DNA from: Candidatus Nanopelagicales bacterium
Lineage (GTDB): Bacteria; Actinomycetota; Actinomycetes; S36-B12
Reading direction: 5' to 3'
Assembly: GCA_018402235.1 (NCBI GenBank)
Contig: JAGYJJ010000005.1
Location: 258,219 to 322,218 of the forward strand
Length of the DNA stretch: 64,000 nucleotides
Shown: positions 1 to 16,052 of the stretch, piece after piece
Numbering within the stretch: the stretch's first letter is position 1
Layout of the letters: each line of letters starts with the position of its first letter
Notes under the pieces: model-generated
Databases searched by the model: none
Told to the model about the DNA's origin: nothing
The model's input: the letters and a program-made list of their open reading frames with translations, nothing else
Translations under genes and position numbers: made by a program

Positions 1-679
1 GCAAAGCACCGGCCGTCTTGGTCAAGATAATCGTCGGCATCACCGCAGCGCGCTCGGTGACCCCGTTGTTTCGACAACCTTCGATGAAGCTCTCCAGCAC
101 ACCCGGCTCGTAGCCGATCTGCAACTGCAGGAATCGAGCGCCGGCGTCGACCTTCATGCGGGCACGGCGAATTCGAACGTCGGCCGGTGGAGCGAAAGGA
201 TTCTCCACCGCACCGATCAGAAGCTCCTTCTTGTGCTTCAGTTCGCGACCCGACAGGTAGCTACCCCGGGACAAGCCACTCATGATCGAGATCAACTGAG
301 GTCCGTCGATATCGAAAACCCGGCGCGCCTCAGGTTCATCGCCAGCGGTGACGTCGTCTCCGGTCAAAGCGCAAAACGTGGTGACCCCGTGCATCGACGC
401 ACCGACAACGTCTGCTTGCGCAGCAATACGGTTCTTGTCTCGGCACACCACCTGCATGATTGGTTCAATGCCGAGTTGCTTAACGGCAATTGCCATGGAG
501 ACGTTGCTTGCATGAGCGTGTGCAGCCGGATTGTCGGTGATGTTCACCGCATCCACGAAGCCGCGGTAGTGCGTGAGCGCTTGTTCAACCGTTGCCAGGT
601 CGCCGCCGTCCATGGATGGGAACTCCGCAGTGACGATCGGGCGTTCCCTACTCGTGAGCAGTACCTCGAAGTCCGACAT
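1..679 (-). CDS. metF: methylenetetrahydrofolate reductase (MetF-type); start present, 3' end runs off the window
   Basis: Not in the ORF track because it is open at the window edge. My own minus-strand translation from ATG 679-677 gives MSDFEVLLTSRERPIVTAEFPSMDGGDL...AVNITDNPAAHAHASNVSMAIAVKQLGIEPIMQVVCRDKNRIAAQADVVGASMHGVTTFCALTGDD, an MTHFR-family pattern. The ATG overlaps the TGA of the upstream gene (TGATG). Confidence 0.65.
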   Translation of the reverse strand, partial: MSDFEVLLTSRERPIVTAEFPSMDGGDLATVEQALTHYRGFVDAVNITDNPAAHAHASNVSMAIAVKQLGIEPIMQVVCRDKNRIAAQADVVGASMHGVTTFCALTGDDVTAGDEPEARRVFDIDGPQLISIMSGLSRGSYLSGRELKHKKELLIGAVENPFAPPADVRIRRARMKVDAGARFLQLQIGYEPGVLESFIEGCRNNGVTERAAVMPTIILTKTAGAL

Positions 680-1053
680 CAGTGGCTCACCTCCCAACCC
701 TCAGGTGTTTCCCTGTCTTTTCCATTCATCAAGTTCAGCCATGAAGAATCACCTTTGAGTTGGTTATTCACCGGCGGCCGAAGGTGACCCACTTCCTCAC
801 GCCAGGACTTTGGCAAGAGCGGCATCGTCTCGGCTCGATGGTTGGCCTTGACCCACACGCACCGCATCTCCGGCTTAACTTCGCAATTGCCATCCGTTCG
901 GACACCTCCGCAGGGTCCGTTACGCAAGGTTTTGGGGCACGTCATCGGGCAGGTCATGCCCGTGGAGTGCAGAACGCACTGTCCGCACATCTGACAATCC
1001 CAGACCGGGCCCTTGACCACGTGTTCGACGATTGGCAACAACTTGCGAAACAT
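679..1053 (-). CDS. small Cys-rich MTHFR C-terminal-domain / MetV-like protein
   Basis: ORF track, 124 aa. Cysteine clusters (CQMCGQC, CPMTCPKTLRNGPCGG, C..C) as in the zinc/FeS small partner of MetF-type reductases. Translationally coupled to the MetF-like gene. Confidence 0.6.
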   Translation of the reverse strand: MFRKLLPIVEHVVKGPVWDCQMCGQCVLHSTGMTCPMTCPKTLRNGPCGGVRTDGNCEVKPEMRCVWVKANHRAETMPLLPKSWREEVGHLRPPVNNQLKGDSSWLNLMNGKDRETPEGWEVSH

Positions 1054-1055
1054 GC

Positions 1056-1712
1056 CTAGGCCCCAGCGCGCACTGCAATTAGTTCCTTGGCCCGACGAAC
1101 CGCAGTTGCCGCATCAGCTGCGTACCCATCGGCTCCCGACACGTCGGCATACTCCTGGGTTACCGGAGCTCCCCCGACCATGATGATGACGTCGTCGCGC
1201 AGACCCGCCTTCTCGATTGCATTGATGTTTACCTTGAACATCGGCATCGTGGTGGTGAGGAACGCACTCATTCCGACGATGTCGGGCTTGTGCTCTTGGA
1301 TCGCCTCAATGAACTTTTCCGGTGGAACCTGAACGCCGATGTCGATCACATGGAATCCGGCACCTTCCAACATGATGTTCACCAGGTTCTTGCCGATGTC
1401 GTGCACATCACCCTTGACGGTGCCCATCAAGAACGTGCCGACGGTTTCCGCGCCGGTCTGTGCCAGTAGCGGGCGCAGCACCTCGAGCGCTCCGGACATC
1501 GCCTTGCCTGCAATGAGCATCTCCGGAACGAAGTAGTCACCGCGTTCGAATCGTGCGCCAACTTCCTCCAATGCAGGAATGAGCGCATCGAACAAGATCG
1601 TGCTTGGGCTCATGCCCAGTTCCAATCCGGCATTCGTGTGCTCAAGCACTGCGGGGGCATTCCCCACCATGGTCTCGTCGTACAAGACCTTCAATACGTC
1701 GTCGGGAGTCAT
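1056..1712 (-). CDS. cobalamin-binding corrinoid protein of a methyltransferase system (MtgC/MttC-like)
   Basis: ORF track, 218 aa. B12-binding DxHxxG signature (GDVHDIGKN) with downstream SAFLTTT and GGAP segments. Lies next to the MttB-family gene. Confidence 0.9.
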   Translation of the reverse strand: MTPDDVLKVLYDETMVGNAPAVLEHTNAGLELGMSPSTILFDALIPALEEVGARFERGDYFVPEMLIAGKAMSGALEVLRPLLAQTGAETVGTFLMGTVKGDVHDIGKNLVNIMLEGAGFHVIDIGVQVPPEKFIEAIQEHKPDIVGMSAFLTTTMPMFKVNINAIEKAGLRDDVIIMVGGAPVTQEYADVSGADGYAADAATAVRRAKELIAVRAGA

Positions 1713-2518
1713 GCAGCACCCACCCTTCCTCCAGTAGGGACGACGGTTGTAGTCCCTGCGTCGTTGTTAGTCGTGCCTTCAAAACCCAAAATCTCCGAAG
1801 CACTCGCTGCCTGCTCAACAAGCAACTCCGCGTAGTTATGGGCGACTTCGCGGGTCATCCGCAGCGTGGGTCCCGCGATGGACATCGCTGCAACAACATC
1901 GCCGCCTGCGGAGAAGACCGGCGCAGCCACTGCGATAAGACCGGGCTCGAGCTCAGAATCGGCCAAGGCCCAGCCGCGTTGGCGGACCTGCTCAAGTTCC
2001 TCGAGCAAGCGCTCACGGGAGGTAATGGTCCGGGTGCTGATCCTTCGTAGCCTTCCCGGCGGCAGATCGGCTCCATAGGCCAAAAAGACTTTGCCGAGTG
2101 CCGAGGCGTGCAGCGGGACCTTTAGATCGCCTGACTTGACCCCGCCAATCAGATACGTGCAATCGATCTGGCTGATTTGTTCTACCTCGGCGCCGTCCAA
2201 GACTGCCAGGTTGATGGTTTCGCCCGTGGCCTCGCTCAACTCGACCATGAAGGTCCGGGTGACCTCGATCAACTCATCCGTTGGGCGCCGCGAGTGAGCG
2301 AACCGGGTCAAGGCCGATCCGGGGCGTACCGCGCCGTCCTCAGAACGAAGGATCAGTTCGTGCCGCTCCAGGCTGGACAGCAGGCGAGACAACGTGCTCT
2401 TGGCCAAACCACTGGACTCCTGCAACTCCGCGAAACTAGGCGGCTGCGTGGCTTCCAACACGGACAGCAGCAAGCCGGCGGCACGGTCCACCGCCTGGGT
2501 GCCGGATGCTGCAGCCAT
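1709..2518 (-). CDS. IclR-family transcriptional regulator
   Basis: ORF track 1709..2614. The internal ATG at 2518 (MAAASGTQAVDRAAGLL...) gives a normal wHTH (LAKSTLSRLLSSLE) plus IclR effector domain. The stop overlaps the corrinoid gene start (ATGA). Divergent from the MttB-family gene. Confidence 0.85.
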   Translation of the reverse strand: MAAASGTQAVDRAAGLLLSVLEATQPPSFAELQESSGLAKSTLSRLLSSLERHELILRSEDGAVRPGSALTRFAHSRRPTDELIEVTRTFMVELSEATGETINLAVLDGAEVEQISQIDCTYLIGGVKSGDLKVPLHASALGKVFLAYGADLPPGRLRRISTRTITSRERLLEELEQVRQRGWALADSELEPGLIAVAAPVFSAGGDVVAAMSIAGPTLRMTREVAHNYAELLVEQAASASEILGFEGTTNNDAGTTTVVPTGGRVGAA

Positions 2519-2574
2519 CGGGGGCCTGCCTTTCGAAAAAACCCGGGGAAAGGTCTTCCGCACGGAACCATATT

Positions 2575-2592
2575 GTGGAACCCTTGTTCCAC
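2575..2592. promoter_or_regulatory. inverted repeat GTGGAAC-cctt-GTTCCAC in the divergent IclR/MttB promoter region (candidate IclR operator)
   Basis: Perfect 7-bp arms with a 4-nt spacer, read directly from the sequence. An extra GGAAC half-site lies about 10 nt upstream. The repeat sits 64 nt before the mttB-family ATG (2656). Confidence 0.5.
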
Positions 2593-2655
2593 GATTGAAG
2601 TGTAGGTAGCCCACCGAAACTCGTCAAGGGTTACTGCTCAACTGATGGGAGAGCC

Positions 2656-4095
2656 ATGTTTCGCAACTCGATGCCGCGCTATGAGATCTTGTCCCAGGAC
2701 GCGCTCGCCACCTTGGACAAGGGCTGGCGAAGGATCGTCTCCGAAATTGGCATCCAGTTCGCCAAACCCGAAGCGGTAGAGATCTTCAAAGCCCACGGCC
2801 AGAAGGTGGACGGGGAGACGGTCTTCCTGGATCCGGAATTTCTCCTCGAGCAGGTAGCAAAGGCTCCGTCGGAGTTCGACATGCAAGCCCGCAACCACGA
2901 TCACGACGTCCACATCGGCGGCGACGCCATGGTCTTCTCCAGCGTGTACGGCCCGCCTTTCTTCCGCCGCGGCGACGAACGACGCGACGGCACGCTCGCT
3001 GATTTCGAGGACTTCGCGAAGCTCGCACAGTCTTTCGAGGTGATGGACAGTGTGGGTGGCGTGGTGGTCGAGCCCAACGACGCTCCTTTGGATTCACGTC
3101 ACCTGGACATGGTTTACCGGGCCCTCACTCTCACCGACAAGATCTTCATGGGCAATGTGGTGAGCGCGACCAATGCGCAGGACACCGTGGCCATGGGCGA
3201 GATGGTGTTCGGTGGCCGCGAATCGATTGAGGAGAAGCCCTTTTGCATCTCACTGATCAACTGCAACTCGCCGATGCGCTGGGACGATCGCATGCTCGAC
3301 TCGCTTTTTGTGTACTCAGCAGCTAACCAACCGGTAATCGTGACCCCGTTCCTACTTATGGGGGCGATGTCGCCGGTAACTATCCCCGCTGCACTCGCTC
3401 AGCAGATGGCTGAGGCTGTGTCGGGCATAGCACTCACCCAGTTGATCCGCCCCGGAGCCCCGGTTGTGTTCGGTTCCTTCCTATCCAACATCGACATGCA
3501 GTCCGGATCCCCCCAGTTTGGAACGCCTGAGTCGGGCATCGGCCTGCTGGCAACAGGACAGATTGCTCGCCACTTCGGATTGCCTTTCCGCGGTGGTGGC
3601 GGCCTCAACTCCTCGCAACTCCCCGACGCCCAAGCAGGGTACGAAGCACTCATGACGCTTATGCCCACGTTCCTTTCCGGCACGAACTTCGTCATGCACT
3701 CTGCCGGCTGGCTCGAAGGCGGTCTGGTGTCCAGCATCGAGAAGTACGTGATCGACGTGCAGCTGGTCGAAATGCTGCAACATCAGTTCACGCCGCTGGA
3801 GATAGACGAAGGCTCCATGGCATTCGATGCCCACCAGGAGATCGGACATGGTGGTCACTTCCTCGGCGCGATGCACACGATGGAACGCTTCCGGGACTGC
3901 TTCTACCGACCCTTCCTGTCGAGTTCGGACAATTTCGAGCGCTGGACGCGCAATGGCTCGAAGGACACCGCAACTCGTGCTGGTGAGATTGCCGCAGAGA
4001 AACTCGCCGCCTATGAAGAGCCACCCATGGACGAGGCACTGAAGGCGGAACTGCAGGCCTTCGTTTCCCGGCGCCGGACAGAACTGGGCGATTAA
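2656..4095 (+). CDS. MttB-superfamily (trimethylamine methyltransferase family) protein, non-pyrrolysine type; likely quaternary-amine (glycine betaine-type):corrinoid methyltransferase
   Basis: ORF track, 479 aa, uninterrupted with no in-frame TAG. N-terminus MPRYEILSQDALATLDKGWRRIVSEIGIQF... and overall length are typical of the MttB family. Context is a corrinoid protein plus bet/opu genes. Confidence 0.85.
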   Translation: MFRNSMPRYEILSQDALATLDKGWRRIVSEIGIQFAKPEAVEIFKAHGQKVDGETVFLDPEFLLEQVAKAPSEFDMQARNHDHDVHIGGDAMVFSSVYGPPFFRRGDERRDGTLADFEDFAKLAQSFEVMDSVGGVVVEPNDAPLDSRHLDMVYRALTLTDKIFMGNVVSATNAQDTVAMGEMVFGGRESIEEKPFCISLINCNSPMRWDDRMLDSLFVYSAANQPVIVTPFLLMGAMSPVTIPAALAQQMAEAVSGIALTQLIRPGAPVVFGSFLSNIDMQSGSPQFGTPESGIGLLATGQIARHFGLPFRGGGGLNSSQLPDAQAGYEALMTLMPTFLSGTNFVMHSAGWLEGGLVSSIEKYVIDVQLVEMLQHQFTPLEIDEGSMAFDAHQEIGHGGHFLGAMHTMERFRDCFYRPFLSSSDNFERWTRNGSKDTATRAGEIAAEKLAAYEEPPMDEALKAELQAFVSRRRTELGD

Positions 4096-4104
4096 TCTCA
4101 GGGC

Positions 4105-5763
4105 ATGAAGGAATCGTTCGACTACGTCATCGTTGGCGGCGGGTCTGCTGGATCCGCGCTCGCCAATCGGCTTTCCGCCGATGAATCCCGCTCGGTGCTG
4201 CTGCTTGAGGCCGGGCGGCGGGATTACTGGTGGGACGTCTACATCCACATGCCGGCGGCACTGACATTTCCCATCGGAAATCCGCGGTACGACTGGATGT
4301 ACTCGAGCGAGCCTGAGCCTGGGATGAATGGCCGACGCATCAGCGCCGGACGCGGCAAGATTCTCGGTGGGTCGAGCAGCATCAACGGGATGATTTTCCA
4401 GCGCGGGAATCCACTCGACTACGAGAAATGGGCCAGCGAGCCCGGCATGGACTCGTGGGACTTCGCACACTGTTTGCCGTACTTCAAGAAGATGGAGACG
4501 TGCACCGCCGGCGCCGATGAATGGCGTGGCAACTCAGGGCCGTTGTATATGGAACGCGGTCCGGTGAAAAATCCACTGTTCAATGCATTCTTCGAAGCAG
4601 TGCAGCAGGCAGGGTACCCGCTTACGGCCGATGTCAATGGCTACAAGCAGGAGGGCTTCGCGGCGTTCGACGGCAGCGTCAAGAATGGTCACCGCGTTAA
4701 TGCATCGAAGGCCTACCTCAACCCGGTTCGCCACCGCAGGAACCTGACAATCAGAACTCGATCACTCGTGACCAGGGTGCTCATGAACGGCACACGTGCC
4801 ACAGGCGTGGAGGTTCGCGACAGACGTGGACGCCTTCAGCAGATCAACGCAGGCGAAGTGATCTTGAGCGGCGGTGCGATCAACTCTCCGCAGTTGCTCC
4901 AGCTATCCGGCATCGGCGATGCAGACCACTTGCGCAGCGTTGGTGTGGAGCCCGTTCATCACCTACCGGGTGTGGGTGAGAATTTGCAGGATCACCTCGA
5001 GGTGTACGTCCAACATGCGTGCACCCAGCCGGTCTCGCTCAATCCGAATCTGCAGTTCTGGCGCCGCCCTTTTATCGGTGCGGCGTGGTTGTTCGGGCGC
5101 ACCGGACCGGGAGCTTCCAACCACTTCGAGGGCGGCGGATTCGCGCGAAGCAACGACGATGTCGATTATCCGAACCTCATGTTCCACTTCCTACCGATTG
5201 CAGTTCGTTACGACGGCACGGCGCCCGAAGGTGGGCACGGTTACCAGGTGCACATCGGCCCGATGTACTCCAATGCCCGCGGTAGCGTTCGGATAACCGC
5301 ATCCGATCCGACCAAGCCACCGGCCCTGCGCTTCAACTACCTGACAACCGAGCAGGACAAGCGTGAGTGGGTCGAAGCAATTCACGTTGCCCGCGACATC
5401 CTCAGCCAGTCTGCCTTCGCCCCCTATAGCGGAGGGGAGATCTCCCCAGGGTCAGCGGTGAGCACTGACGAAGAGATCCTCGAGTGGGTCCGCCAAGACG
5501 GGGAAACCGCGTATCACCCCTCGTGCACCTGCAAAATGGGCGTGGACGAGATGGCCGTTGTGGATCCCGAATCGCTTCGGGTGCACGGGCTCGACGGGCT
5601 GCGTGTGGTCGATGCCTCGGTCATGCCCGAAATCACCAATGCGAACATCTACGCGCCCACCATGATGATTGCGGAAAAGGCTGCAGATCGCATCATTGGG
5701 ATAAAACCGCTCCCACCGGAGCCCGTTCCGTTCTATCGTCACCGCGACTACGTAACCAAATGA
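4105..5763 (+). CDS. betA: choline dehydrogenase (GMC oxidoreductase)
   Basis: ORF track, 552 aa. FAD-binding N-terminus [19 protein letters not shown] and the GMC signature region [14 protein letters not shown]. Followed by betB. Confidence 0.9.
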
Positions 5764-5851
5764 CACGTAACCAACTAAAGGGCCCAACCTGATCACCAGG
5801 TGAACCGCCCGCCAATAAATAATCGCGGTGGAAGGACGGACAATCGTCGTG

Positions 5852-7330
5852 ATGGGACTGCTCATAGATGGTCACTGGTGCCAGGCGGCCAGTGGAGCCA
5901 CCAGGACCATCACCTGCCCGGCAGATGGCCATGTGGTGGGAAGCGTCCCCGAAGCCGGCGAAGTCGACACCGTCCGCGCGATCGAAGCAGCCCGGCGCGC
6001 ATTCGACTCCACCTCCTGGCGCACAACGTCCAGCTTGGAACGCTCTCGACTTCTTCTGGCAGTGGCCGATCGACTCGAGTCCGAGACGCAGACAGTTGCT
6101 GCCGCCGAATCCGCAGACACCGGCAAGCGTCTCGTGGAATCTCGCTACGACGTAGCAGATGTGGTGTCGTGCTTTCGCTACTTCGCAGGGTTAATTCCCA
6201 AGGACTCCGGGCGGGTCATCGACACCGGCAATCCGACCACGATTTCCCGCGTCCAGCACGAGCCCGTGGGCGTGTGTGGACTCATCACTCCGTGGAATTA
6301 CCCGCTCCTGCAAGCGAGTTGGAAGGTTGCCCCAGCCTTGGCCGCGGGGTGCACGTTCGTGCTGAAGCCCAGCGAACTCACGCCACACACCTCGATTCTT
6401 CTCATGCAGTACTTGGTCGACGCTGGGATGCCGGCCGGGGTCGGCAATCTCGTTTTGGGCGCCGGCCCCACTGCTGGAGCACCCCTTTCCAGCCACCCGG
6501 ATATCGACATGGTCTCCTTCACCGGCGGCCTGGCCACCGGTCGCCGCATTATGGAAGCCGCCTCGGCCACGGTGAAGAAGGTCGCCCTTGAACTGGGCGG
6601 CAAGAACCCCAACATCGTCTTCGCCGATGCGGACTGGGATGCGGCCGTCGACAATGCGCTCACCGCCGTCTTTTTGCACTCAGGTCAGGTGTGTTCGGCC
6701 GGAGCGCGGTTGATCGTTGAGGAATCAATTCACGACGACTTTGTGGACGCCCTGGTCGAAGCTGCAGAGGGCATCAGGCTGGGCGGCCCGTACGACGAGA
6801 AGGCACAGACGGGAGCCCTGATCAGCGCAGCGCACCGCGACAAGATCGCCGACTACGTTGCGAAGGCACTGAAAGAAGGAGCCACTTTGCGCTGCGGAGG
6901 CCGAGAGCCCGATGGCCACGCCGATGGCTTCTTCTACCTCCCCACAATCTTGGACGGCTGCACGGCCTCCATGACGTGTGTTCAGGAGGAGTCTTTCGGA
7001 CCGGTGCTCACCGTCGAGACCTTCCGCACCGAGGCCGAGGCAACAGCGATCGCCAACGACACCTACTACGGCCTTGCCGGCGGTGTGTGGACCTCCGATG
7101 CTTCTAAGGCTCAGCGCGTAGCCAACGCCCTTAGGCACGGAACGATTTGGATAAACGACTTCCACCCCTACCTACCTCAGGCAGAATGGGGCGGTTTCAA
7201 ACAATCAGGAGTGGGACGAGAACTCGGCGCCCAGGGCTTCGGCGAGTACTTGGAAACAAAGCACGTCTATCAAAACCTTGACCCGAAACCCAGCGGGTGG
7301 TTCGACGTATCAGCGAAGGAAGCCCGATGA
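5852..7330 (+). CDS. betB: betaine-aldehyde dehydrogenase (NAD-dependent aldehyde dehydrogenase)
   Basis: ORF track 5828..7330. The ALDH catalytic region [15 protein letters not shown]...[16 protein letters not shown] is present. ATG 5852 (MGLLIDGHW...) is the preferred start but remains uncertain. Confidence 0.9.
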
Positions 7331-8406
7331 CAGCCGTAACCGCTATTGATTCCCAAGTTCAGGTTGATACCGATGCAGCGATCTCCGTCCGGGGTCTGTG
7401 GAAAGTCTTCGGTGAAGACGCCAACTCGATCATCGGTTCACCCGAAGCCCATCTGAGCCGGCCAGAATTACTCGAGAAGACAGGTTGCGTAGCAGCAGTC
7501 CGCGATGTGTCCTTTGATGTCGCCAAAGGCGAGGTCTTCGTCGTGATGGGCCTTTCTGGGTCCGGTAAGTCCACACTCGTTCGCTGCCTCACCCGCTTGA
7601 TCGAACCCACCGCCGGCGAAGTCTTCTTCGAAGGCGAGGACATCCTCACCGCCTCGAAGTCTCGATTACGCGAGCTTCGACGAACCAAGTTCTCCATGGT
7701 GTTCCAACACTTCGGGTTGCTGCCACATCGCCGAGTAATAGACAACATCGCCTACCCCCTCGAAATCAACGGTGTGGGCAAGGACGCTCGCTATCAGCGG
7801 GCGCGCGAAGTGATCGAACTCGTCGGACTCGATGGCTACGCAAACCACTTTCCCGAGCAACTGTCTGGCGGGATGCAACAGCGCGTTGGCTTAGCCCGCG
7901 CCCTTGCGGTCAACCCAGAGGTCATGTTTCTCGACGAACCCTTCAGTGCCCTCGACCCGTTGATTCGCCGCGATATGCAAAACGAGGTCAAGCGCCTGCA
8001 TAAGGACTTGAACAAGACGATGGTGTTCATCACCCACGACCTCGCCGAAGCTATGAAACTCGGGGATCGAATCGTCATCATGCGCGACGGCGACATCGTG
8101 CAGGTGGGAACACCGGTTGATTTGGTGATGAAGCCTGTCGACGATTACGTAGCAGACTTCACCAAGGACATACCCAAGTCCCATGTGCTCACCATGGGAG
8201 CACTCGCGCGGGCTGCGCGTGCTGACGAAACTGTGAGTGCCGATCCGGTCGATGCCGATCTGATCGTCCGCAAAGCGATTCCACGCATTGTCAATTCGAC
8301 TAATCCCGTAGGGGTGGTGAAGGGCGGCGCTACCGTCGGCGTAGTGGGTAGAGACGATATTTTGCATCTCATTGCCGACGATGCCGACGAAGGCAGCAGT
8401 ACGTGA
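7327..8406 (+). CDS. opuAA: glycine betaine/proline ABC transporter ATP-binding protein with C-terminal CBS-like region
   Basis: ORF track 7297..8406. ATG 7327 overlaps the betB stop (ATGA). Walker [10 protein letters not shown], signature LSGGMQQRV, Walker [12 protein letters not shown]. Confidence 0.9.
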
Positions 8407-10376
8407 GTACCCCAACTTTCGTCGACACACTCCCTCACTGGCTGCGCAAGCGCAGCAGCGTCATAGTCATAGTCCTGGTCGTCTGGGTCATTCTCGCCAC
8501 ACTCTTGCGCGGAGTCGACACCCTCGAACTATCCACCGCCACCAATACCCCGGTCACGGAATGGTTCCGCGAGTTAGCTGCGTCGATCCGCGGTAGCCGC
8601 TCCGAGGCATGGATCTTCATCTTCGTCTTCAATCCCATCCGGGCTTTCATCCAAGGATTCGTGGAAGTAATCCGTTCGGTTATCGCAGTTCCTGGTTCAG
8701 GAGACGTGATTCCCGTCATCGGCTGGCTCGGTGTCGTTGCTCTCGTGGGCTTCATCGTGTACGCATCATCCAACTGGCGAACTGCTCTGCTGTCGATGGG
8801 CTTGCTCACGGCATGCGGGATGTTGGGCGTGTGGATAGACACCATGGATACCCTCGCAATGACAATGGGGTCGGTCCTCCTGTCGTTAGCGATAGCGCTA
8901 CCCATCGGGATCTGGGCCGGACTCAACGACCGATTCATGGCATTTATTCGCCCGGTTTTGGACCTCGCGCAGATCCTCCCCACACTCGTCTACCTTGCGC
9001 CCCTCGCGTTGGTATTCCTCGTGGGCATCGCGGCCTCCACCATCGCAACGATGATCTACTCCATACCCATTTGCGTTCGCATCACCGCACACGCGATCCG
9101 TAGCCTCAAGGCTGGCCCGATCGAGGCTTCCGAATCTATGGGGTCGACCCGCTTACAGATGCTGCGCAAAGTCCAACTACCCATGGCTCGGCGAACCATC
9201 ATCCTGGGTATCAATCAGACGACTTTGGCGGCGCTGTCCTTCGTGGTTATTGCGGCCCTCATCGGTGCTCCCGGCCTCGGTAAGCCTGTCATCGAGGCAC
9301 TCACTATTCGCAATGTGGGCAACGGAGTAGTTGCAGGTCTAGCCGTGGTCCTTTTGGCGGTCATGCTTGATCGAGCGACCACCGCAGCAGTGCAGCACAG
9401 CGCTGAGATTCCACCAGAAGGCGACGCACTCATCCGGCGTCGGATCGGACTCGCTGCCGCGGCGGCCGCCACCATTGGAGCTATCGCTTTATCGCGCTAC
9501 CAGTTGTGGGCGGCGGTCTTCCCGGAGCGGTTGGTCATCGGCTCCTACATCGGCAATGCCGCCGATGCTGTCACCGACTGGATCACCAGCAACTTCTACG
9601 CCCTCACCATTGGTCTCAATCAGAACTTCACCATTCACGTTCTCAACCGGGTCGAAGCCGTTTTGGCCGATGCCCCCTGGTATCTCACCATCATCGCGAT
9701 TTCCATTCTGGCGGCGATCATCGGCGGTCGCTTTGTTGGCGTACTCTCCCTTGTCCTGTTGACCGGCGTGGTCCTTATTGGACTGTGGAACGACGCCATG
9801 GTGACCTTGACCCAAGTCCTCATCGCCACCGCGATCGTAATGCTGATCGGTGTACTGCTGGGAGTTGCTGCAGGCCGGAGTCCGCGGGTCGAGCGTGCCC
9901 TGAAACCATTCCTGGACGCCGGCCAGACGCTGCCGGCATTCGTGTACCTCGTTCCGGTTCTCGCCCTGTTCGGACCATCTCGCTTCGCCGCGATCGTGTG
10001 CGGTGTCTTCTACGCGTCGCCCGTAGTGGTCCGCGTGGTGGCCGACGGGGTACGCGGCGTCCCCAAGGACATGGTGGAAGCCGCCGTTTCCTCGGGAAGC
10101 AGCACAACTCAAGTCGTAACCAAAGTGCAACTTCCCGCATCCAAGAAGTCGCTGCTCCTGGGCGCTAATCAGGGCATGATTTTCGTGCTTGCCGTTGTTG
10201 TCATCGGCGGGTTCGTTGGGGCAGGTGGCCTTGGCTACCTGGTCATCGTCGGCCAGTCCAAACCGGAGTTACAGGGCAAAGGACTGGCGGCAGGCCTAGC
10301 GATCGTCTTGCTAGGCATTGTCATGGATCGCATCGCGCAAGCCGGAGCGCGTCGCAACGAGAAACAGCCCACTTAA
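8403..10376 (+). CDS. opuAB: glycine betaine ABC transporter permease, fused tandem (two transmembrane domains in one 657-aa chain)
   Basis: ORF track. The two halves each carry the permease loop ([34 protein letters not shown] and [34 protein letters not shown]). The GTG start overlaps the opuAA stop. Confidence 0.85.
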
Positions 10377-10437
10377 CGGTGGGCAAGCACCACCCACGAC
10401 CACAGCGGACGTGGGCAACTCCGAAGGGAAGACAGGT

Positions 10438-11481
10438 ATGAGGAATCACATGCGGGGGCGCCTTGCGGTGCTACCGGTACTGGCAGCCGCCAGTTTGATT
10501 CTCGCCGCGTGCGGTGGAGATGTGAATGAAGCGGCAACGGAAACTGCCGAGGAGACCGTCGCTGAGGAGACGGCTGCAGAAGAAGTTGACGACGCAGGTG
10601 CCACCGAGGAGGTCACTGCTGTTGCCGACTGCGGCGACTGGGGTGTCGCGATGCACGCGTGGGTGGGCTACACGGCATCCGCTCAGGTGCTCTCCGACGT
10701 GGCACGCGAAGCCCTCAACTGCAACATCGAGCAGCTGCAGCTTGCTGAGGCTGGCGTGACCTACGACGCCATGGAAGCCGGCTCCGTCGATGTGATCGTC
10801 GAGGACTGGGGCGGCGGCCGCTGGCAGGAATGGGTTGATCGTGGCGCCGTCCAGGAGGTCGGCACCAACGGCAACGTTGGCCTGATCGGCATGTTCGTTC
10901 CGCAGTGGATGTGTGAGGAATACCCGGACATCACCGACGGCACCAAGCTCAACGACTACGCCGAGCTCTTCGTCACACCAGAGACCGGCGATAAGGGCGC
11001 CTGGTACGAGGGCCCCCCCGGCTACACCACCATCGGCGAGAAGATCATCAACGCCTACGACCTTGACTACCAGGTCATCAACACCGGTTCTGAGGCGGCG
11101 CTGATCGAGATGTTCACCCAGGCTGCAGAAAACCAAACGCCTGGACTGGGCTACTTCTACGAGCCGCAGAACTTCCTCGCGCAGGTGGAGTTGTGCCGCA
11201 TCAACTTCCCGGAGAATGACTGGTCAGATCCGGCCGAGGCCAGTGGTGAGACCGACTACCCGCAGACACCGCTCGTCAAGCTCGCCACCACCGAACTGGT
11301 GGAGTCGGGCTCACCGTTCGCCACACTCGTCGCGAACTTCGAGTGGACCAACGCCGACCAGAACCAGGTTGCGGCAGCCATTGAGGGCGGTGCCACACCT
11401 GAGCAAGCGGCAGCAGACTGGATCGCCGCGAACACCGACCGGGTCAACGCCTGGTTGGAGGGGACGGGCGCCAGCCTGTAG
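10438..11481 (+). CDS. opuAC: glycine betaine-binding lipoprotein (OpuAC/ProX-type substrate-binding protein)
   Basis: ORF track 10318..11481. ATG 10438 follows a GAAGGGA RBS and gives a lipoprotein signal (MRNHMRGRLAVLPVLAAASLILAACGG). Confidence 0.85.
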   Translation: MRNHMRGRLAVLPVLAAASLILAACGGDVNEAATETAEETVAEETAAEEVDDAGATEEVTAVADCGDWGVAMHAWVGYTASAQVLSDVAREALNCNIEQLQLAEAGVTYDAMEAGSVDVIVEDWGGGRWQEWVDRGAVQEVGTNGNVGLIGMFVPQWMCEEYPDITDGTKLNDYAELFVTPETGDKGAWYEGPPGYTTIGEKIINAYDLDYQVINTGSEAALIEMFTQAAENQTPGLGYFYEPQNFLAQVELCRINFPENDWSDPAEASGETDYPQTPLVKLATTELVESGSPFATLVANFEWTNADQNQVAAAIEGGATPEQAAADWIAANTDRVNAWLEGTGASL

Positions 11482-11499
11482 TTCCTACAAACAACGAGA

Positions 11500-11536
11500 G
11501 TGTGGGGTCCCGGTCTTCCGGGGCCCCACACTTTTT
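11500..11536 (+). terminator. rho-independent terminator after opuAC
   Basis: GTGTGGGGTCCCGG-tctt-CCGGGGCCCCACAC, with 13 of 14 stem positions paired, followed by TTTTT. Begins 19 nt after the stop codon. Confidence 0.85.
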
Positions 11537-11599
11537 CCACCAAAGCCTCACCAACGCGCTGCCTTCGTTGTCACACTGGGGTCTTCGATTGGAGGCCCG

Positions 11600-13147
11600 A
11601 TGATCATTCACCGCAGCCCGTTGCCCGATGTGGACATCCCCGATATAACCGTGACGGAATTCGTTCTTCGGGAAGCTGAGCGCGTTCCCGACCGTCCAGC
11701 TTTGATCGACGGACCCAGCGGTCGGACCTACACCTACGCCCAGCTATCGGGGGCGATTCATGCTTTCGCGGGTGGCTTACAGGCCCGTGGATTGGGACCG
11801 GGATCCACCATCGCGTTGATGTCTCCGAATATCCCGGAATTCGCCATCGTCTTCCATGGCGCGGCTGTGGCCGGCGTGGCGGTGAGCACGATCAACCCGA
11901 CCTACACGGCCGAAGAGGTGGCATTCCAACTTCAGGACTCCGGTTCACTCTTGCTCATCACTATCGCGATGTTCGCTGAAACCGCACTGCAAGCAGCCGA
12001 GGATTCCGGTGTTGGTGAGGTACTCATCATTGGTGATCCTCCCGAGGGGCTTTCGCCTTTCACCACATTGATGGGCAACCCGATCAGCCAGGTAGGTGTG
12101 GATCCTGGCGACCAGATAGTGGTTTTGCCCTACTCATCGGGCACCACGGGGTTTCCCAAGGGCGTGATGCTCACCCACACCAACCTGATCGCAAATCTCG
12201 TTCAATGCGAAGGTGCACTTGACGTCCACGACGGGGAAGTGGTTCTTGCCGTGCTGCCCTTCTTCCACATCTACGGCATGCAGGTTTTGATGAACTTCTT
12301 CCTCAGCCGGGGTTCGACGATCGTCACTGTGCCACGGTTCGATCTGCAGCAAAGTCTCGAACTGATTCAGCAGCACCGCATCACGCGCCTGTTCGCAGTC
12401 CCGCCTATCGTCCTCGCGCTAGCCAAGCACCCACTCGTCGATGAGTACGACCTTTCTAGCCTTCGTCAGGTGTTCTCGGGTGCTGCACCGCTGGGTGCGG
12501 AACTCGCCGAGGAAGCATCGAAGCGGATCAACTGTGAGGTGGTGCAGGGCTACGGCATGACCGAGATGAGTCCGGTGTCCCATGTGACACGGATGGGCGA
12601 TTTCAAGCCCGGCACCTGCGGGGTGACCGTCGCGAATACTGAATGTCGCATCATCGATGCCGAAGGCGGAGAAGATCAGGGGGTAGGGGCAGTCGGGGAA
12701 CTATGGGTGCGTGGCCCGCAGGTCATGAAGGGTTACTTGAATAACCCGGAGGCAACTGCCGAGACGATCGATGCTGACGGCTGGCTCCACACCGGCGATG
12801 TCGCGTTCATCGATGAAGACGGTCATATGACGATCGTCGACCGGGTCAAGGAACTCATCAAGTTCAAGGGTTTCCAGGTGGCGCCGGCTGAACTCGAGGC
12901 ACTCCTTCTCACCCACCCGAGCATCGCCGATGCGGCCGTGATTGGGGTCCCCGACGACGAGGCCGGGGAAAGACCCCGAGCTTTCGTGGTCCTCAAAGAC
13001 GGCCAGCAGCTAAGTGCTGACGACGTCACCAACTTCACAGCGGAGCATGTGGCTACCTACAAGGTCATCCACGATGTGGTTTTCACAGACACGATTCCCA
13101 AGTCAGCATCCGGCAAGATCCTGCGCCGGCTACTGCGTGAGAGCTGA
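11600..13147 (+). CDS. AMP-dependent acyl-CoA/4-coumarate-CoA ligase family protein
   Basis: ORF track 11216..13147. The true start is ATG 11600 after a GGAGG RBS (MIIHRSPLPDVDIPD...). AMP-binding motif YSSGTTGFPKGV and the C-terminal motifs GWLHTGD and PKSASGKILRR. Confidence 0.85.
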   Translation: MIIHRSPLPDVDIPDITVTEFVLREAERVPDRPALIDGPSGRTYTYAQLSGAIHAFAGGLQARGLGPGSTIALMSPNIPEFAIVFHGAAVAGVAVSTINPTYTAEEVAFQLQDSGSLLLITIAMFAETALQAAEDSGVGEVLIIGDPPEGLSPFTTLMGNPISQVGVDPGDQIVVLPYSSGTTGFPKGVMLTHTNLIANLVQCEGALDVHDGEVVLAVLPFFHIYGMQVLMNFFLSRGSTIVTVPRFDLQQSLELIQQHRITRLFAVPPIVLALAKHPLVDEYDLSSLRQVFSGAAPLGAELAEEASKRINCEVVQGYGMTEMSPVSHVTRMGDFKPGTCGVTVANTECRIIDAEGGEDQGVGAVGELWVRGPQVMKGYLNNPEATAETIDADGWLHTGDVAFIDEDGHMTIVDRVKELIKFKGFQVAPAELEALLLTHPSIADAAVIGVPDDEAGERPRAFVVLKDGQQLSADDVTNFTAEHVATYKVIHDVVFTDTIPKSASGKILRRLLRES

Positions 13148-13167: not shown

Positions 13168-13965
13168 GTGCAGCGACTCCTGGCATACACCGCATCTGCC
13201 GGCCTCGTGGCTACCGCCATGCTGGCAACCGGGTGCAGCACCTCGGCAACGTCGGAACCGACTGCAACGCCTAGCCCAGCCCTCACCGAAGCGCCATCAC
13301 CCACCATCGATGAGCCGACACAGTCGCCTACGTCTCCACGGGAGACCTGGCTCACAGCAGTGCTCGATACCGAGCAAGCGGACGCAGCAACTATGGACAT
13401 ACAACTCATCACCAACGTTGAAGGCTTCGAGCGCATCACGGCCGGTGAAGGCTATGTGGAAATGCTGCAGGGGTACGGGGATATCGCCTGGACCGATGAT
13501 CTCGGCGCGACCCGTGAGGTCCTGACCGCAAACGGACACTTCCTCGAACTCGACGGCACCTGGTTCTCGATAGAACGAGAGGGTGCGCTTCCCACCACAG
13601 TTGCCTTCGATCCATTGACGGGCCTCGCGGAGGCTACGAATGTCGTGGAAATCGGAACCGAGGATGTGGGTGGGCTCACCACCACTCGCTTGGATGCTGA
13701 TCTCGACGCGCGCATAGGTATCTCTTCGATGGGTTTCAGCGAAGAGGAGCGCACCGTCTTTGCAGGCGACACAGGCGCCTCACTCATCGCCACGATATGG
13801 ATTGACGACACGGGCCGAATCGTTCGGGTGCTGCGCGAATACTCCACATCCAGCCTCGACGGGGATCCCATTCGAGCCACCAGTTTGTTCCTTGTGAACA
13901 ACCTCGGTGAATATCAGCCGATAGATGTACCCGAGACCGCCGACGCGATTCCAGCACCGGTCTAG
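13168..13965 (+). CDS. putative secreted lipoprotein, function unknown
   Basis: ORF track, 265 aa. Signal peptide with lipobox (AMLATGCS) followed by a Pro/Thr/Ser linker. No confident family assignment. Confidence 0.6.
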   Translation: MQRLLAYTASAGLVATAMLATGCSTSATSEPTATPSPALTEAPSPTIDEPTQSPTSPRETWLTAVLDTEQADAATMDIQLITNVEGFERITAGEGYVEMLQGYGDIAWTDDLGATREVLTANGHFLELDGTWFSIEREGALPTTVAFDPLTGLAEATNVVEIGTEDVGGLTTTRLDADLDARIGISSMGFSEEERTVFAGDTGASLIATIWIDDTGRIVRVLREYSTSSLDGDPIRATSLFLVNNLGEYQPIDVPETADAIPAPV

Positions 13966-13977
13966 CAGGCTGGTGCC

Positions 13978-15162
13978 ATGAGCGTTCCCATAGTTGTCGT
14001 TGGTGGAGGGTTGAGTTCCCTTCGCAGTGTCGAGTCCTTGCGTAAGGAGGGCTACACGGATCGCATCGTGGTGGTGGGAGACGAAGATCTCCTCCCGTAC
14101 AACCGACCACCGTTGTCCAAGGAAGCTCTCCTGACCGGCGTGGACCCAGTCGCGCTGGAATTTCGTCGGCGTCCCACCGTCGACGACGTGGAGTGGCGAC
14201 TGGGGTCAGGAGCTGTATCCAGTGATCTCAACGAGCGAACCGTCACCTTGGCGGATGGGCAAACACTGCACTTCTCGGGTCTGGTGATTGCTTCAGGTAT
14301 TCGCCCTCGCCGATTGGACATACCTGGTCCAACGGGCGGTCGATACGTCCTACGGACCGAGCACGACGCAACAACCCTGCGTCAGCACCTCACTCCGGGG
14401 TCACGGCTTCTCATCATGGGAGCCGGCTTCATCGGCTGCGAGGTTGCATCGACTGCCCGAGCGTTGGGCTGCGAGGTTGCCATCGTGGCCCTGGATGCTG
14501 AACCCATGATCCGCCCTCTTGGTGCAGACCTCGGTGCGGCCATGCGCCGTCATCATGAGGCGCATGGAGTGATGTTCCATCTGGGCCGGACGATCACGAG
14601 ATTCTTGGGCGACGACACCATCACTGCCGCTGAACTTGACGACGGCACCGTGCTCGACACTGATCTCGTTCTCGAAGCAGTCGGCTCGGACCCCAATACC
14701 CAATGGCTAGATGGCAATGGGTTGGACTTATCCAACGGAGTGCTGACAGACGGCTACCTGCGGGTGATCGATGCGCCAGTACCCGCAGTAGCCCTCGGCG
14801 ATATCGCACGCCACCCGAATGCCTTGTTCCCCGGGCAGACCTTCCGCATCGAACACTGGAACATGCCCACGGAGATGGGGAAGATTGCTGGTCGAACCTT
14901 GGCCTCGTTGATCGCCGGAGCAAGCCCATCGGGTGAGACATTTCGAGGGCTACCGTCCTTTTGGAGCGACCAATACGATCTTCAGCTGCAATCCTTCGGT
15001 ATTCCCGGTATCGCGACGAGTTATCAACTCGTCGATGGGACGTACGACGCCGCCTGCATAGTGGAGTACCACGACGATTCCGGCCTTGTTGGAGTGATCG
15101 GTGTCAATAGGACCCCGGAGTTGGCCCCGTATCGGAGGGAACTCCTCAATCGCGAACAGTGA
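13978..15162 (+). CDS. FAD-dependent pyridine nucleotide-disulfide oxidoreductase (ferredoxin reductase-like)
   Basis: ORF track, 394 aa. Two Rossmann motifs (VVVGGGLSS and IMGAGFIGCEVA) and a typical ferredoxin-NAD(P) reductase C-terminal domain. Confidence 0.85.
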   Translation: MSVPIVVVGGGLSSLRSVESLRKEGYTDRIVVVGDEDLLPYNRPPLSKEALLTGVDPVALEFRRRPTVDDVEWRLGSGAVSSDLNERTVTLADGQTLHFSGLVIASGIRPRRLDIPGPTGGRYVLRTEHDATTLRQHLTPGSRLLIMGAGFIGCEVASTARALGCEVAIVALDAEPMIRPLGADLGAAMRRHHEAHGVMFHLGRTITRFLGDDTITAAELDDGTVLDTDLVLEAVGSDPNTQWLDGNGLDLSNGVLTDGYLRVIDAPVPAVALGDIARHPNALFPGQTFRIEHWNMPTEMGKIAGRTLASLIAGASPSGETFRGLPSFWSDQYDLQLQSFGIPGIATSYQLVDGTYDAACIVEYHDDSGLVGVIGVNRTPELAPYRRELLNREQ

Positions 15163-15813: not shown

Positions 15814-16052
15814 TCCTGCCCACCGAACGGCCCGCCACGCGGCGGACCCTGCTCCGAGGTGCCCGCGGGCACCTCGGAGGGTGCGGTAGCACGACCTACA
15901 GCCACGCCAATCAAGATTCCCAGCAGCACGAGTAGGACCGCAATCAAGGCGGTGGTTGATGTCGCTCGTCCACGCTTGCCGCGGCGAGCCAGCATGCGCG
16001 CGAGTTCTTCACTCGACGTGACGTCGTCTGTCATGTCGCGATCCTCACTCAT
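15810..16052 (-). CDS. small membrane protein, last gene of the exporter operon
   Basis: ORF track 15810..16214. Only the part from ATG 16052 (MSEDRDMTDD...TTALIAVLLVLLGILIGVAVG...) is free of the upstream permease. It has one TM helix. Overlaps the permease stop by 8 nt. Confidence 0.4.
   Translation of the reverse strand: MSEDRDMTDDVTSSEELARMLARRGKRGRATSTTALIAVLLVLLGILIGVAVGRATAPSEVPAGTSEQGPPRGGPFGGQD

Follow-up and report, generated by a model that had tools for sequence, protein, structure and literature searches.

The gene cluster at the left end of the 64-kb stretch of DNA analyzed here (the window) likely belongs, as an actinobacterial representative, to the known MtgBCD-type systems for cobalamin-dependent glycine betaine demethylation. 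It would form part of a two-operon, IclR-controlled regulon for choline and glycine betaine catabolism in an aerobic host. The cluster is intact and most likely serves actinobacterial choline uptake, oxidation to glycine betaine, and B12-dependent methyl removal. Anaerobes are already known to demethylate betaine in a B12-dependent way, as are, since 2025, aerobic marine bacteria; we found no experiments on any actinobacterial member in the searchable literature.

The closest genomes are metagenome-assembled genomes (MAGs) labelled Actinomycetota or Candidatus Nanopelagicales (MttB identity, 91-94%). Together with a GC content of 59-60% at the locus, these labels uphold the description of the host as a high-GC actinobacterium in an earlier sequence-only reading. 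The remainder of the window carries prs-glmU-ksgA-tatD-metG-rsmI-pmt-mfd, presumably a conserved Actinomycetes arrangement. The five genes described in the earlier reading are all where it placed them, as judged by Pfam matches (Table 1): opposite mttB runs a divergent operon for an IclR regulator, a DxHxxG corrinoid protein, a Cys-rich MetV-like protein, and MetF. Chance origin is not an issue for these genes because they give strong family matches and are conserved across dozens of genomes. The translational coupling proposed for the whole operon holds at two of its junctions, the ATGA overlap between the IclR and corrinoid protein genes and the TGATG overlap between the MetV stop and the metF start, but the corrinoid protein and MetV genes are separated by a 2-nt gap (TAG-GC-ATG).

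Table 1. Features of the two divergent operons and the region between them
Feature	Position	Strand	Evidence
MetF-like methylenetetrahydrofolate reductase	1..679	-	PF02219 E=3e-13; first 226/308 codons, gene leaves window at left end
MetV-like small Cys-rich protein, MetF partner	679..1053	-	PF12225 (MTHFR C-terminal domain family) E=2e-24
Corrinoid (cobalamin-binding) protein, MtgC-like	1056..1712	-	PF02607 + PF02310; DVHDIG
IclR-family transcriptional regulator, first in minus-strand operon	1709..2518	-	HTH_IclR + IclR_C
Candidate operator, inverted repeat TGGAAC-CCTT-GTTCCA, divergent mttB/iclR intergenic region	2576..2591		
Promoter-like site TTGACG-17-TACACT	2599..2627	-	Promoter scan
Non-pyrrolysine MttB-superfamily methyltransferase, putative glycine betaine:corrinoid methyltransferase (MtgB-like)	2656..4095	+	PF06253
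Choline dehydrogenase BetA	4105..5763	+	TIGR01810, NF002550
Betaine-aldehyde dehydrogenase-like protein BetB	5852..7330	+	TIGR01804 best NCBIfam match
Betaine/choline ABC transporter ATPase (ProV/OpuAA-like)	7327..8406	+	TIGR01186
Fused double permease (ProW/ChoW-like), betaine/choline ABC transporter	8403..10376	+	Two BPD_transp_1 stretches
Glycine betaine/choline substrate-binding protein (OpuAC)	10450..11481	+	PF04069 E=1e-32

The match of the 479-aa mttB product to PF06253 (E=7.5e-185; 615 bits against a cutoff of 25) covers profile positions 25-500 of 500. Its ORF has no internal stop of any kind, in-frame TAG included, and Leu317 aligns to the pyrrolysine residue ('X') of 7xcl, which confirms the assignment to the pyrrolysine-free branch. 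The source annotations read 'trimethylamine--corrinoid protein Co-methyltransferase', and TIGR02369 is the only NCBIfam match. We nevertheless give next to no credence to the gene being a trimethylamine methyltransferase: apart from the missing TAG and Leu317, the TIGR02369 score of 288 bits lies well under the cutoff of 525, identity to Methanosarcina barkeri MttB is only 28%, and MttB has Tyr at the position of the carboxylate-binding Arg312. The M. barkeri system (MttB/MttC; PDB 7XCL, 7XCN) shares the Pfam family and a homologous corrinoid partner (MttC, 144 bits to 7xcn_M), but where MttB has Tyr residues this protein has Arg312 and His348, and the methyl acceptor pathway would be THF rather than coenzyme M.

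According to the sequence-only reading, the sequence by itself does not reveal the substrate. The window does constrain it, through betA, betB, proV, proW, and opuAC and through the residues aligned to the substrate contacts of MtgB. Four glycine betaine contacts of Desulfitobacterium hafniense MtgB are known from mutagenesis and a crystal structure (PMC13080624), and three of them are kept here: Tyr98 (Tyr97 in D. hafniense MtgB), Arg312, and His348. The carboxylate-binding Arg312 and His348 are identical in the query and in 85/85 actinobacterial orthologues; the cation-pi aromatic Tyr98 is kept in 84 of the 85. The fourth contact, the cation-pi Phe356 of MtgB, is Gly356 in 85/85 orthologues, and Trp352, four residues earlier, is invariant and common to 4yyc (45% identical to our protein) and Paracoccus. 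In an orphan Leisingera paralogue, whose gene context is unrelated, Ala occupies the Tyr98 position. The three conserved residues, the bet and transporter genes, and a dimethylglycine dehydrogenase (DMGDH)-like gene next to the operon all point to glycine betaine as the most likely substrate.

The same four-component corrinoid system could instead act on another quaternary amine (proline betaine, carnitine, gamma-butyrobetaine, choline, or phosphocholine) or on several betaines. Members of the MttB superfamily have diverged in substrate, and since the close relatives MtyB and MtcB differ in substrate preference despite 53% identity, the substrate cannot be assigned from homology by itself. Our protein is only 41% identical, over the full length, to D. 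hafniense MtgB, the one biochemically characterized MtgB that we compared, and Phe356 of that enzyme is not conserved. OpuA-type transporters often carry several betaines. Still, we consider another substrate fairly unlikely. BetA and BetB would make glycine betaine beside mttB, and the DMGDH-like enzyme would use the expected product; at least one of BetA, BetB, or the DMGDH-like gene lies within 10 kb in 47 of the 51 fully flanked loci among the best 80 of 587 (see below). The flanks showed no genes for carnitine or proline betaine. Tyr98 is kept as well, whereas MtcB, MtpB, MthB, and MtyB do not retain the aromatic pair (PMC13080624).

On the plus strand, betA follows mttB after 9 nt, and its product scores 844 bits against TIGR01810 (cutoff, 732) and 872 bits against NF002550. 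BetB reaches 586 bits with TIGR01804 (BADH), below the cutoff of 669; we took its start from a 492-aa gene call on L001, one of the near-identical public contigs (98.9% identity). The ProV-like ATPase passes the TIGR01186 cutoff (358 bits against 327), and the coordinates imply a 4-nt overlap of proV with the betB stop codon. The ProW-like fused permease matches TIGR03416 (335 bits) and NF008196 (314 bits), both below cutoff, and for opuAC the start follows the 343-aa protein called on L001. BetA, BetB, and the transporter may have an additional role in osmoprotection.

Two parts predicted to lie beyond coordinate 1, to be sought by extending the sequence leftward, were a methylcorrinoid:THF methyltransferase and a reductive activase. 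We read these off-window genes from five public contigs that are 97.5-99% identical to the window's first 8.4-11.7 kb, and the remainder of the operon could be annotated there. It consists of the rest of MetF, the methyl-THF:corrinoid methyltransferase, and a RACo-type activase, and is followed by GntR, the DMGDH-like enzyme, electron transfer flavoprotein (ETF), and formate-THF ligase. The predicted methyltransferase, a pterin-binding protein, is encoded 33 nt after metF; it scores 320 bits with NF005719 (cutoff, 259) and resembles AcsE/MT2-like methyltransferase II (PDB 4o0q, 135 bits). MtgB and MtgC in the window and MtgD on the near-identical contigs are thus encoded together. An activase is also there, but it is of the RACo/AcsV type and not the methanogen RamA type. 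This 647-aa [2Fe-2S]-RACo gives 350 bits to PDB 3zyy over residues 41-642, contains Fer2, RACo_linker, Raco_middle, and RACo_C_ter Pfam domains, and scores 444 bits against the AcsV cutoff of 800. The RamA-type model TIGR04270 gives only 101 bits, and the protein is not of that type, which has C-terminal 4Fe-4S domains. Like RACo/AcsV of Carboxydothermus hydrogenoformans (PDB 3ZYY), which it matches over its full length, it has an N-terminal [2Fe-2S] ferredoxin followed by RACo linker, middle, and C-terminal (ASKHA ATPase) domains, but it would serve a betaine methyltransferase system rather than CO dehydrogenase/acetyl-CoA synthase.

Of the minus-strand genes in the window, iclR likely starts at the ATG at 2518 (269 aa, per gene calls on the near-identical contigs) and not at the GTG at 2614. 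The corrinoid protein combines a B12-binding_2 cap (PF02607) with a Rossmann B12-binding domain (PF02310), its DVHDIG motif lying at aa 102-107, the architecture of methyltransferase-associated corrinoid proteins of the TIGR02370 type. Its best NCBIfam match is MtgC_2 (200 bits, below the cutoff of 370), it scores under the equivalog cutoffs for MtgC and MtbC, and it matches PDB 1y80 at 182 bits. With the cobalamin-binding protein of a Sinorhizobium meliloti cluster it shares 45% identity. This resemblance would fit a reading in which the corrinoid protein and the pterin methyltransferase mainly work together as a split methionine synthase, in the manner of Phaeobacter/Ruegeria MtgCDE, with MttB as a side input. 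We regard that as highly improbable, given that no homocysteine-binding module (MtgE/Bmt-like) was present among the genes scanned in the window and its 9-kb extension, that the operon is probably IclR-regulated and sits amid catabolic genes (bet, DMGDH-like, ETF, and FTHFS), and that the layout accompanies bet genes in most genomes.

The 124-aa MetV-like protein has 8 Cys between residues 20 and 65. The gene was left uncalled by the gene callers on the five public contigs, and its product is 68-93% identical in 20 related loci and 53% identical to a 'MTHFR C-terminal domain-containing' protein of the S. meliloti cluster. The full 308-aa MetF on L001 scores 156 bits with NF006396 and only 38 bits with the canonical TIGR00676. 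As in acetogen MetV/MetF, a small Cys-rich PF12225 protein is encoded directly upstream of a MetF divergent from that of E. coli; here the MetV-like protein is short, and the pair would work oxidatively, in an aerobic host.

An MttB relative was encoded in 587 scanned stretches, of which we kept the best 80; 51 of these had full 10-kb flanks. The core layout is found in 51/51 of these fully flanked loci, as is each of IclR, the corrinoid protein, and the pterin methyltransferase, and RACo is found in 49. BetA and ProV are each encoded in 41 of the 51, BetB in 39. MetV/MetF occur in only 12-13 of the same 51 and, being absent from most related clusters, are therefore an accessory part. The hosts include the cultivated aerobes Nocardioides, Phycicoccus, and Nostocoides jenkinsii.

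These data suggest how the glycine betaine system may work. The window's left end would hold one half of the two-operon regulon. From the plus strand (mttB-betA-betB-proV-proW-opuAC), the ABC transporter would bring in choline and/or betaine, and BetA and BetB would convert choline to glycine betaine. The MtgB-like enzyme would then take one N-methyl group from glycine betaine, load it onto the Co(I) corrinoid protein, and release dimethylglycine, and the off-window methyltransferase would move the methyl to tetrahydrofolate. MetV/MetF would turn methyl-THF into methylene-THF; we infer this oxidative direction and the electron partners. The [2Fe-2S]/ATP-dependent RACo would re-reduce corrinoid that has been oxidized to Co(II), a step that matters in an oxygen-exposed cell. 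The adjoining unit (GntR, DMGDH-like enzyme, ETF, and formate-THF ligase) may remove the next methyl and dispose of C1 units. The route from a betaine methyl through corrinoid into the tetrahydrofolate pool and on to oxidation had been proposed from the sequence alone, and everything testable fits it.

The aerobic alphaproteobacterial MtgBCD system (PMC12478193) has the same parts: its methyltransferase belongs to pfam06253, and with it come a cobalamin-binding protein, a pterin-binding methyltransferase, a MetF paralogue that oxidizes methyl-THF, and a reductive activase of the ASKHA type. It has genetic support from knockouts of mtgC and mtgD in Ruegeria pomeroyi DSS-3 (PMC12478193) and of mtgB1 in Phaeobacter inhibens (bioRxiv 10.64898/2025.12.19.695462). 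Its hosts, like the one here, are aerobic, and the signatures VYGPPF, LPFR..GG.L, and H.AGWLEGGL are common to the alphaproteobacterial and actinobacterial systems. Here, however, the host belongs to Actinomycetota, an IclR gene heads the operon, and betA, betB, the betaine ABC transporter, and DMGDH-like/ETF/FTHFS genes are joined into the same locus. No MtgE/Bmt module lies nearby among the genes scanned in the window and extension, so there is no sign of a dual methionine-synthase role. S. meliloti and Paracoccus methylovorus show the same divergent layout, with MttB facing the corrinoid protein, MetV, MetF, methyltransferase II, and activase; RACo aligns to the ASKHA-domain protein of their clusters. 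All six window/L001 proteins have S. meliloti counterparts at 32-54% identity (45%, 45%, and 48% for MtgB, MtgC, and MtgD). In contrast to those two clusters, which have the DUF1638 gene counted among the accessory genes of the MtgBCD system, the gene and Pfam list for ours contains none.

The D. hafniense system (MtgB/MtgC/MtgA; PDB 2QNE, 9YCE; PMC13080624) likewise combines an MttB-superfamily enzyme that has Leu at the pyrrolysine position with a DxHxxG corrinoid protein and an AcsE/MT2-like methyltransferase II. That host is an anaerobe, whereas the one here is an aerobe, and the gene neighborhood differs, as do the Phe356 and Trp352 positions described above.

Directly upstream of the operator, on the minus strand, the promoter scan marked TTGACG-17-TACACT. 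The scan gave 4 hits in this region where 3.5 would be expected by chance, and the position of this one is faintly suggestive of a promoter. The palindrome TGGAAC-CCTT-GTTCCA is unique within the window. With at most one mismatch, the repeat occurs in 60 of 76 orthologous intergenic regions, against a mean of 0.005 of 76 in shuffles, and the spacer sequence of TGGAAC-N4-GTTCCA differs between loci. The IclR protein probably binds this palindrome between the two operons.

The minus-strand genes at the left end of the window face an MttB-family gene, and an operon of this make-up could pass methyl groups from a betaine through cobalamin into the tetrahydrofolate (THF) pool, as a sequence-only reading had proposed. 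We recovered every gene on the list of that reading by an ORF scan and family searches, in a sequence of 59-60% GC, and the interpretation is supported as well. The MttB homologue was said to lack a pyrrolysine codon. Indeed, its ORF contains no internal stop codon, and Leu317 aligns to the pyrrolysine of MttB; the glycine betaine methyltransferase MtgB has the same residue there. The minus-strand genes had been described as all overlapping, which is true of the IclR/corrinoid (ATGA) and MetV/MetF (TGATG) junctions but not of corrinoid/MetV, where TAG-GC-ATG leaves a two-base gap. On the plus strand, betA starts 9 nt after mttB, and the coordinates give 4-nt overlaps at betB/proV and proV/proW. 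We therefore treat mttB-betA-betB-proV-proW-opuAC (2656-11481) as one operon. An Rfam search of the window and of L001, a public contig 98.9% identical to its left end, found only two tRNAs and no cobalamin riboswitch or other RNA element. The single 15-nt indel between the two sequences is placed by coordinate arithmetic in the betA-betB spacer (window 5764-5851).

Features of the betaine cluster, its continuation on near-identical contigs and the rest of the window
Feature	Position	Strand	Match or description
MetF, first 226 codons	1-679	-	PF02219
MetV-like protein, 124 aa, eight cysteines	679-1053	-	PF12225, E=2e-24
Corrinoid protein	1056-1712	-	B12-binding_2 + B12-binding; DVHDIG at residues 102-107
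IclR-family regulator, 269 aa, most likely start	1709-2518	-	gene call on near-identical public contigs
Inverted repeat	2576-2591		TGGAAC-CCTT-GTTCCA
MttB homologue, 479 aa	2656-4095	+	Pfam MTTB PF06253, full length, E=7.5e-185
betA	after mttB	+	TIGR01810, 844 bits, above cutoff
betB, betaine-aldehyde-dehydrogenase-like	after betA	+	best match TIGR01804, below cutoff
proV	after betB	+	TIGR01186, above cutoff
proW/choW	after proV	+	fused double permease
OpuAC binding protein	after proW/choW	+	
Complete MetF, 308 aa	runs past coordinate 1, near-identical contigs	-	
Pterin-binding protein, 285 aa	33 nt after metF, near-identical contigs	-	NF005719, 320 bits vs cutoff 259
RACo-type activase, 647 aa	14 nt after pterin-binding gene, near-identical contigs	-	N-terminal [2Fe-2S] ferredoxin + RACo linker, middle and C-terminal domains
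GntR regulator	beyond activase gene, near-identical contigs		
842-aa DAO/FAO_M/GCV_T protein	after GntR		dimethylglycine/sarcosine dehydrogenase architecture
ETF beta, ETF alpha, formate-THF ligase	after 842-aa protein, near-identical contigs		
Three ORFs just downstream of transporter genes	11216-13147, 13168-13965, 13978-15162	+	acyl-CoA-synthetase-like (AMP-binding); 265-aa ORF; ferredoxin-NAD+ reductase-like flavoprotein (Pyr_redox_2 + Reductase_C)
MacB-type permease, two pieces	16045-16518, 16780-17250	-	
Low-GC segment (52-58% vs ~60% elsewhere)	~20000-28000		NitT/TauT-type ABC transporter, sulfatase, Amidohydro_3 protein, DUF885 protein
Mfd/TRCF, two overlapping ORFs	29741-31771, 31735-33438	-	
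IspE-like kinase	41446-42033	-	N-terminal domain alone
Methionyl-tRNA synthetase, split	43743-44621, 44805-45371	-	N- and C-terminal pieces, middle missing
1354-aa ORF	47887-51951	-	fibronectin type III domain + weak Lcl_C-terminal domain match
Two ORFs beside the 1354-aa ORF	52313-53440, 53558-54091		no family match

A methylcorrinoid:THF methyltransferase and a reductive activase had been predicted to lie beyond coordinate 1. An exact look-up placed the identical corrinoid protein on 11 public metagenome contigs. The five that we fetched belong to the species-level population of the window; they match its first 8.4-11.7 kb at 97.5-99.1% identity, and the alignments need one to four gap openings. 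These contigs lengthen the locus by about 9 kb leftwards, and both predicted genes are there, on near-identical contigs rather than on the window's own molecule. NF005719, which the pterin-binding protein matches, is the model for methyltetrahydrofolate:corrinoid/iron-sulfur protein methyltransferase; the best solved relatives of the protein are Carboxydothermus hydrogenoformans MeTr (2yck, 154 bits) and Desulfitobacterium hafniense MT2 (4o0q, 135 bits). The activase scores 350 bits against RACo (3zyy) over residues 41-642 and 444 bits against AcsV, and only 101 bits against RamA. The MetV-like ORF (679-1053 on the minus strand; L001 10658-11033) is uncalled on all five contigs, where an empty 377-bp gap stands in its place, and is kept in 20 related loci. 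Searching for exact copies of the MetV-like and MttB proteins gave no match, in the case of MetV because the ORF is uncalled on the public contigs.

When one genome was scanned for each species, at least 599 stretches matched, of which at least 587 encode an MttB relative. We fetched the best 80 of these at least 587 relatives with their flanks (72-94% identity). Their hosts are Actinomycetes. Some are metagenome-assembled genomes (MAGs) that carry the label Nanopelagicales or Actinomycetota, and others are cultivated aerobes, including Phycicoccus, Nostocoides jenkinsii and several species of Nocardioides. Among these best 80, 51 loci have full 10-kb flanks. The IclR regulator, the corrinoid protein and the pterin methyltransferase are each present in 51/51 of them and RACo in 49/51, followed by BetA (41/51), ProV (41/51), BetB (39/51), the DMGDH-like gene (13/51), MetV (13/51) and MetF (12/51). 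The core thus consists of MttB and, facing it, IclR, the corrinoid protein, methyltransferase II and the activase. Dozens of Actinomycetes share this layout, to which the window's own lineage typically adds MetV/MetF as an accessory insertion. ORFs between mttB and betB in Nocardioides mangrovi (L029) were set aside, since spurious high-GC ORFs obscured the picture there. Of the 51 loci, 47 carry one or more of BetA, BetB and the DMGDH-like gene within 10 kb. This association of the cluster with betaine-making and dimethylglycine-consuming genes is strong, and it is the main reason that we name glycine betaine as the substrate. Four MAGs with the cluster in full synteny (L008, L010, L012 and L015; 80-91% MttB identity) are titled "Rubrivirga sp." and "Bifidobacterium breve"; these labels look wrong, the result of mis-binning or mislabelling.

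We then compared the MttB homologue with the PDB sequences 4yyc, 2qne/9yce and 7xcl and with plasmid-borne alphaproteobacterial homologues, confirming identities by blastp. It is 44.6% identical to 4yyc (433 bits), deposited as a "putative trimethylamine methyltransferase", about 41% (41.1%) to D. hafniense MtgB (2qne/9yce, 407-409 bits) and 28.3% to Methanosarcina barkeri MttB (7xcl, 160 bits). The 4yyc protein, which PMC9842639 does not mention, matches Sinorhizobium meliloti over the same residues, and the S. meliloti hit is likewise 44.6% identical to our protein. Since 4yyc and MtgB are 44.9% identical, the three form roughly equidistant lineages. Public annotation routinely labels such genes trimethylamine methyltransferases, and an NCBIfam search of our protein returned the MttB model only. 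True activity on trimethylamine is nevertheless hardly credible, being contradicted by Leu317, a TIGR02369 score below cutoff and Arg312.

Arg312 corresponds to a substrate contact of MtgB. Based on mutagenesis and a betaine-bound structure, Picking et al. report that Tyr97 and Phe356 of MtgB make cation-pi contacts with glycine betaine and that Arg312 and His348 hold its carboxylate; they add that MtcB, MtpB, MthB and MtyB do not conserve the aromatic pair (PMC13080624). Our protein has three of these four contacts: Arg312 and His348, kept in 85/85 actinobacterial orthologues, and Tyr98, the equivalent of Tyr97, kept in 84/85. The Phe356 contact is absent; the position is Gly356 in our protein and in the 85 orthologues, and Trp352 is invariant. 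A motif, H-x-A-G-W-L-E-G-G-L, is common to our protein, 4yyc and a Paracoccus homologue. It is also kept in an orphan Leisingera paralogue from an unrelated gene context, where Ala replaces Tyr98, which suggests that the tyrosine goes with betaine-associated copies. This paralogue, an MttB-family protein 42% identical to ours (Leisingera sp. M527 plasmid, L088 8914-10452), lies among MmgE/PrpD, hydantoinase/oxoprolinase and Asp/Glu racemase genes and has no corrinoid genes in its vicinity; given the Ala at the betaine-contact Tyr, its substrate is probably another methylated compound. MtyB and MtcB are 53% identical and prefer different substrates, so the substrate of our enzyme cannot be deduced from its 41% identity to MtgB. 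Some other quaternary amine is accordingly conceivable, and the Phe356 position leaves room for one, but we consider it improbable, as gene context and active-site residues together appear to constrain the substrate to glycine betaine.

These data suggest that the locus is probably an actinobacterial cluster for B12-dependent, MtgBCD-type demethylation of glycine betaine. The ABC transporter would take up choline and/or betaine, and BetA and BetB would oxidize choline to glycine betaine. The MttB homologue would then move one N-methyl group of glycine betaine onto the corrinoid protein, leaving dimethylglycine. The pterin methyltransferase would pass this methyl group to THF, and MetV/MetF could oxidize the resulting methyl-THF; RACo would re-reduce the Co(II) corrinoid at the expense of ATP. 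Further demethylation may fall to the DMGDH-like enzyme with ETF, with C1 units disposed of via formate-THF ligase. In principle, the ferredoxin-NAD+ reductase-like flavoprotein encoded downstream of the transporter genes could supply the [2Fe-2S] domain of RACo with electrons; the 265-aa ORF in the same group has no family match.

The first descriptions of glycine betaine demethylation through a corrinoid came from anaerobes, namely D. hafniense (MtgB/MtgC/MtgA) and methanogens. Aerobic Ruegeria pomeroyi requires MtgC and the pterin-binding MtgD for growth on glycine betaine, which induces pfam06253 proteins, a MetF paralogue, RamA and DUF1638; the clusters are co-located in S. meliloti, and 5% of ocean mtgC reads are actinobacterial (Mausz et al. 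2025, PMC12478193). An mtgB1 deletion was reported in Phaeobacter inhibens (2025 preprint, bioRxiv 10.64898/2025.12.19.695462). The loci of S. meliloti and Paracoccus methylovorus, which we retrieved for comparison, show the divergent layout of the window. In both of them MttB faces a B12-binding protein, DUF1638, a MetV-like protein and MetF, together with a methyl-THF:cobalamin methyltransferase and an ASKHA-domain protein. Proteins of the window or its extension match their S. meliloti counterparts at 44.6% (MttB), 44.9% (corrinoid protein), 53.5% (MetV), 36.5% (MetF), 47.9% (pterin methyltransferase) and 32.2% (RACo) identity. The shared layout and these six matches indicate that the window carries an actinobacterial version of the alphaproteobacterial system, a further, uncharacterised case of a known system and not a new kind. 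In the literature searched we found no experimental characterisation of an actinobacterial member.

The two versions differ in several ways. Unlike the alphaproteobacterial clusters, the window operon is headed by an IclR gene, no DUF1638 shows up among the annotated genes and Pfam families of the actinobacterial cluster, and the same locus physically incorporates the bet genes, the transporter and the DMGDH-like/ETF/FTHFS unit. In Phaeobacter and Ruegeria, MtgCDE acts as a split methionine synthase, and by analogy a largely anabolic role of this kind might be considered here. However, a survey of genes in the window and its 9-kb extension turned up no homocysteine module nearby, so nothing suggests a dual methionine-synthase role, and we regard this possibility as very remote.

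The 137-bp mttB/iclR intergenic region contains an inverted repeat that occurs once in the 64-kb window. Allowing at most one mismatch, we find the palindrome in 60 of 76 orthologous intergenic regions, compared to a mean of 0.005 of 76 in shuffled controls; its arms are kept and the four spacer bases differ among loci. On the minus strand, a site resembling a promoter, TTGACG-17-TACACT, ends 7 nt upstream of the palindrome. A scan for sigma-70 promoters and terminators was overall not above chance, so this site is notable for its position alone. We infer that the palindrome is a candidate operator of the co-conserved IclR protein, at which the regulator would control the cluster.

In soils as well as in saline and fresh waters, few nitrogen-containing osmolytes are more abundant than glycine betaine and choline. 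To our knowledge, no experiment has demonstrated how Gram-positive aerobes take the first methyl group off glycine betaine. If the cluster works as we read it, a large share of Actinomycetes would depend on cobalamin for this step, given at least 587 stretches with a relative in a species-level genome collection and a layout near-universal in the fully flanked loci of the best 80. The link between betaine turnover and B12 demand, recently recognised in marine Alphaproteobacteria, would then reach another major phylum, and a widespread mis-annotation as "trimethylamine methyltransferase" would be corrected. The value of the finding lies in this breadth, in the routine mis-annotation and in the cultivable carriers: cultivated strains have the same cluster, so the idea is directly testable. 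More speculatively, many Actinomycetes (Nocardioides, Phycicoccus, Nostocoides and uncultured Nanopelagicales-like bacteria) might possess a self-contained, oxygen-exposed B12-dependent glycine betaine demethylase, decoupled from methionine synthesis and governed by a dedicated IclR repressor on a TGGAAC-N4-GTTCCA operator. Such an enzyme would hold trimethylammonium with Tyr98/Trp352, in place of Tyr97/Phe356 in the characterised enzyme, and in the window's lineage an acetogen-type MetV/MetF would run oxidatively. We put this forward tentatively, as a proposal that may well fail.

Elsewhere in the window, several genes appear to be broken into separate ORFs. The split methionyl-tRNA synthetase, Mfd, MacB and IspE-like genes most likely reflect assembly indel errors rather than pseudogenes. 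The betaine cluster itself is unbroken, in agreement with five independent contigs. The low-GC segment may be a horizontally acquired catabolic island, and the 1354-aa ORF probably encodes a large surface protein.
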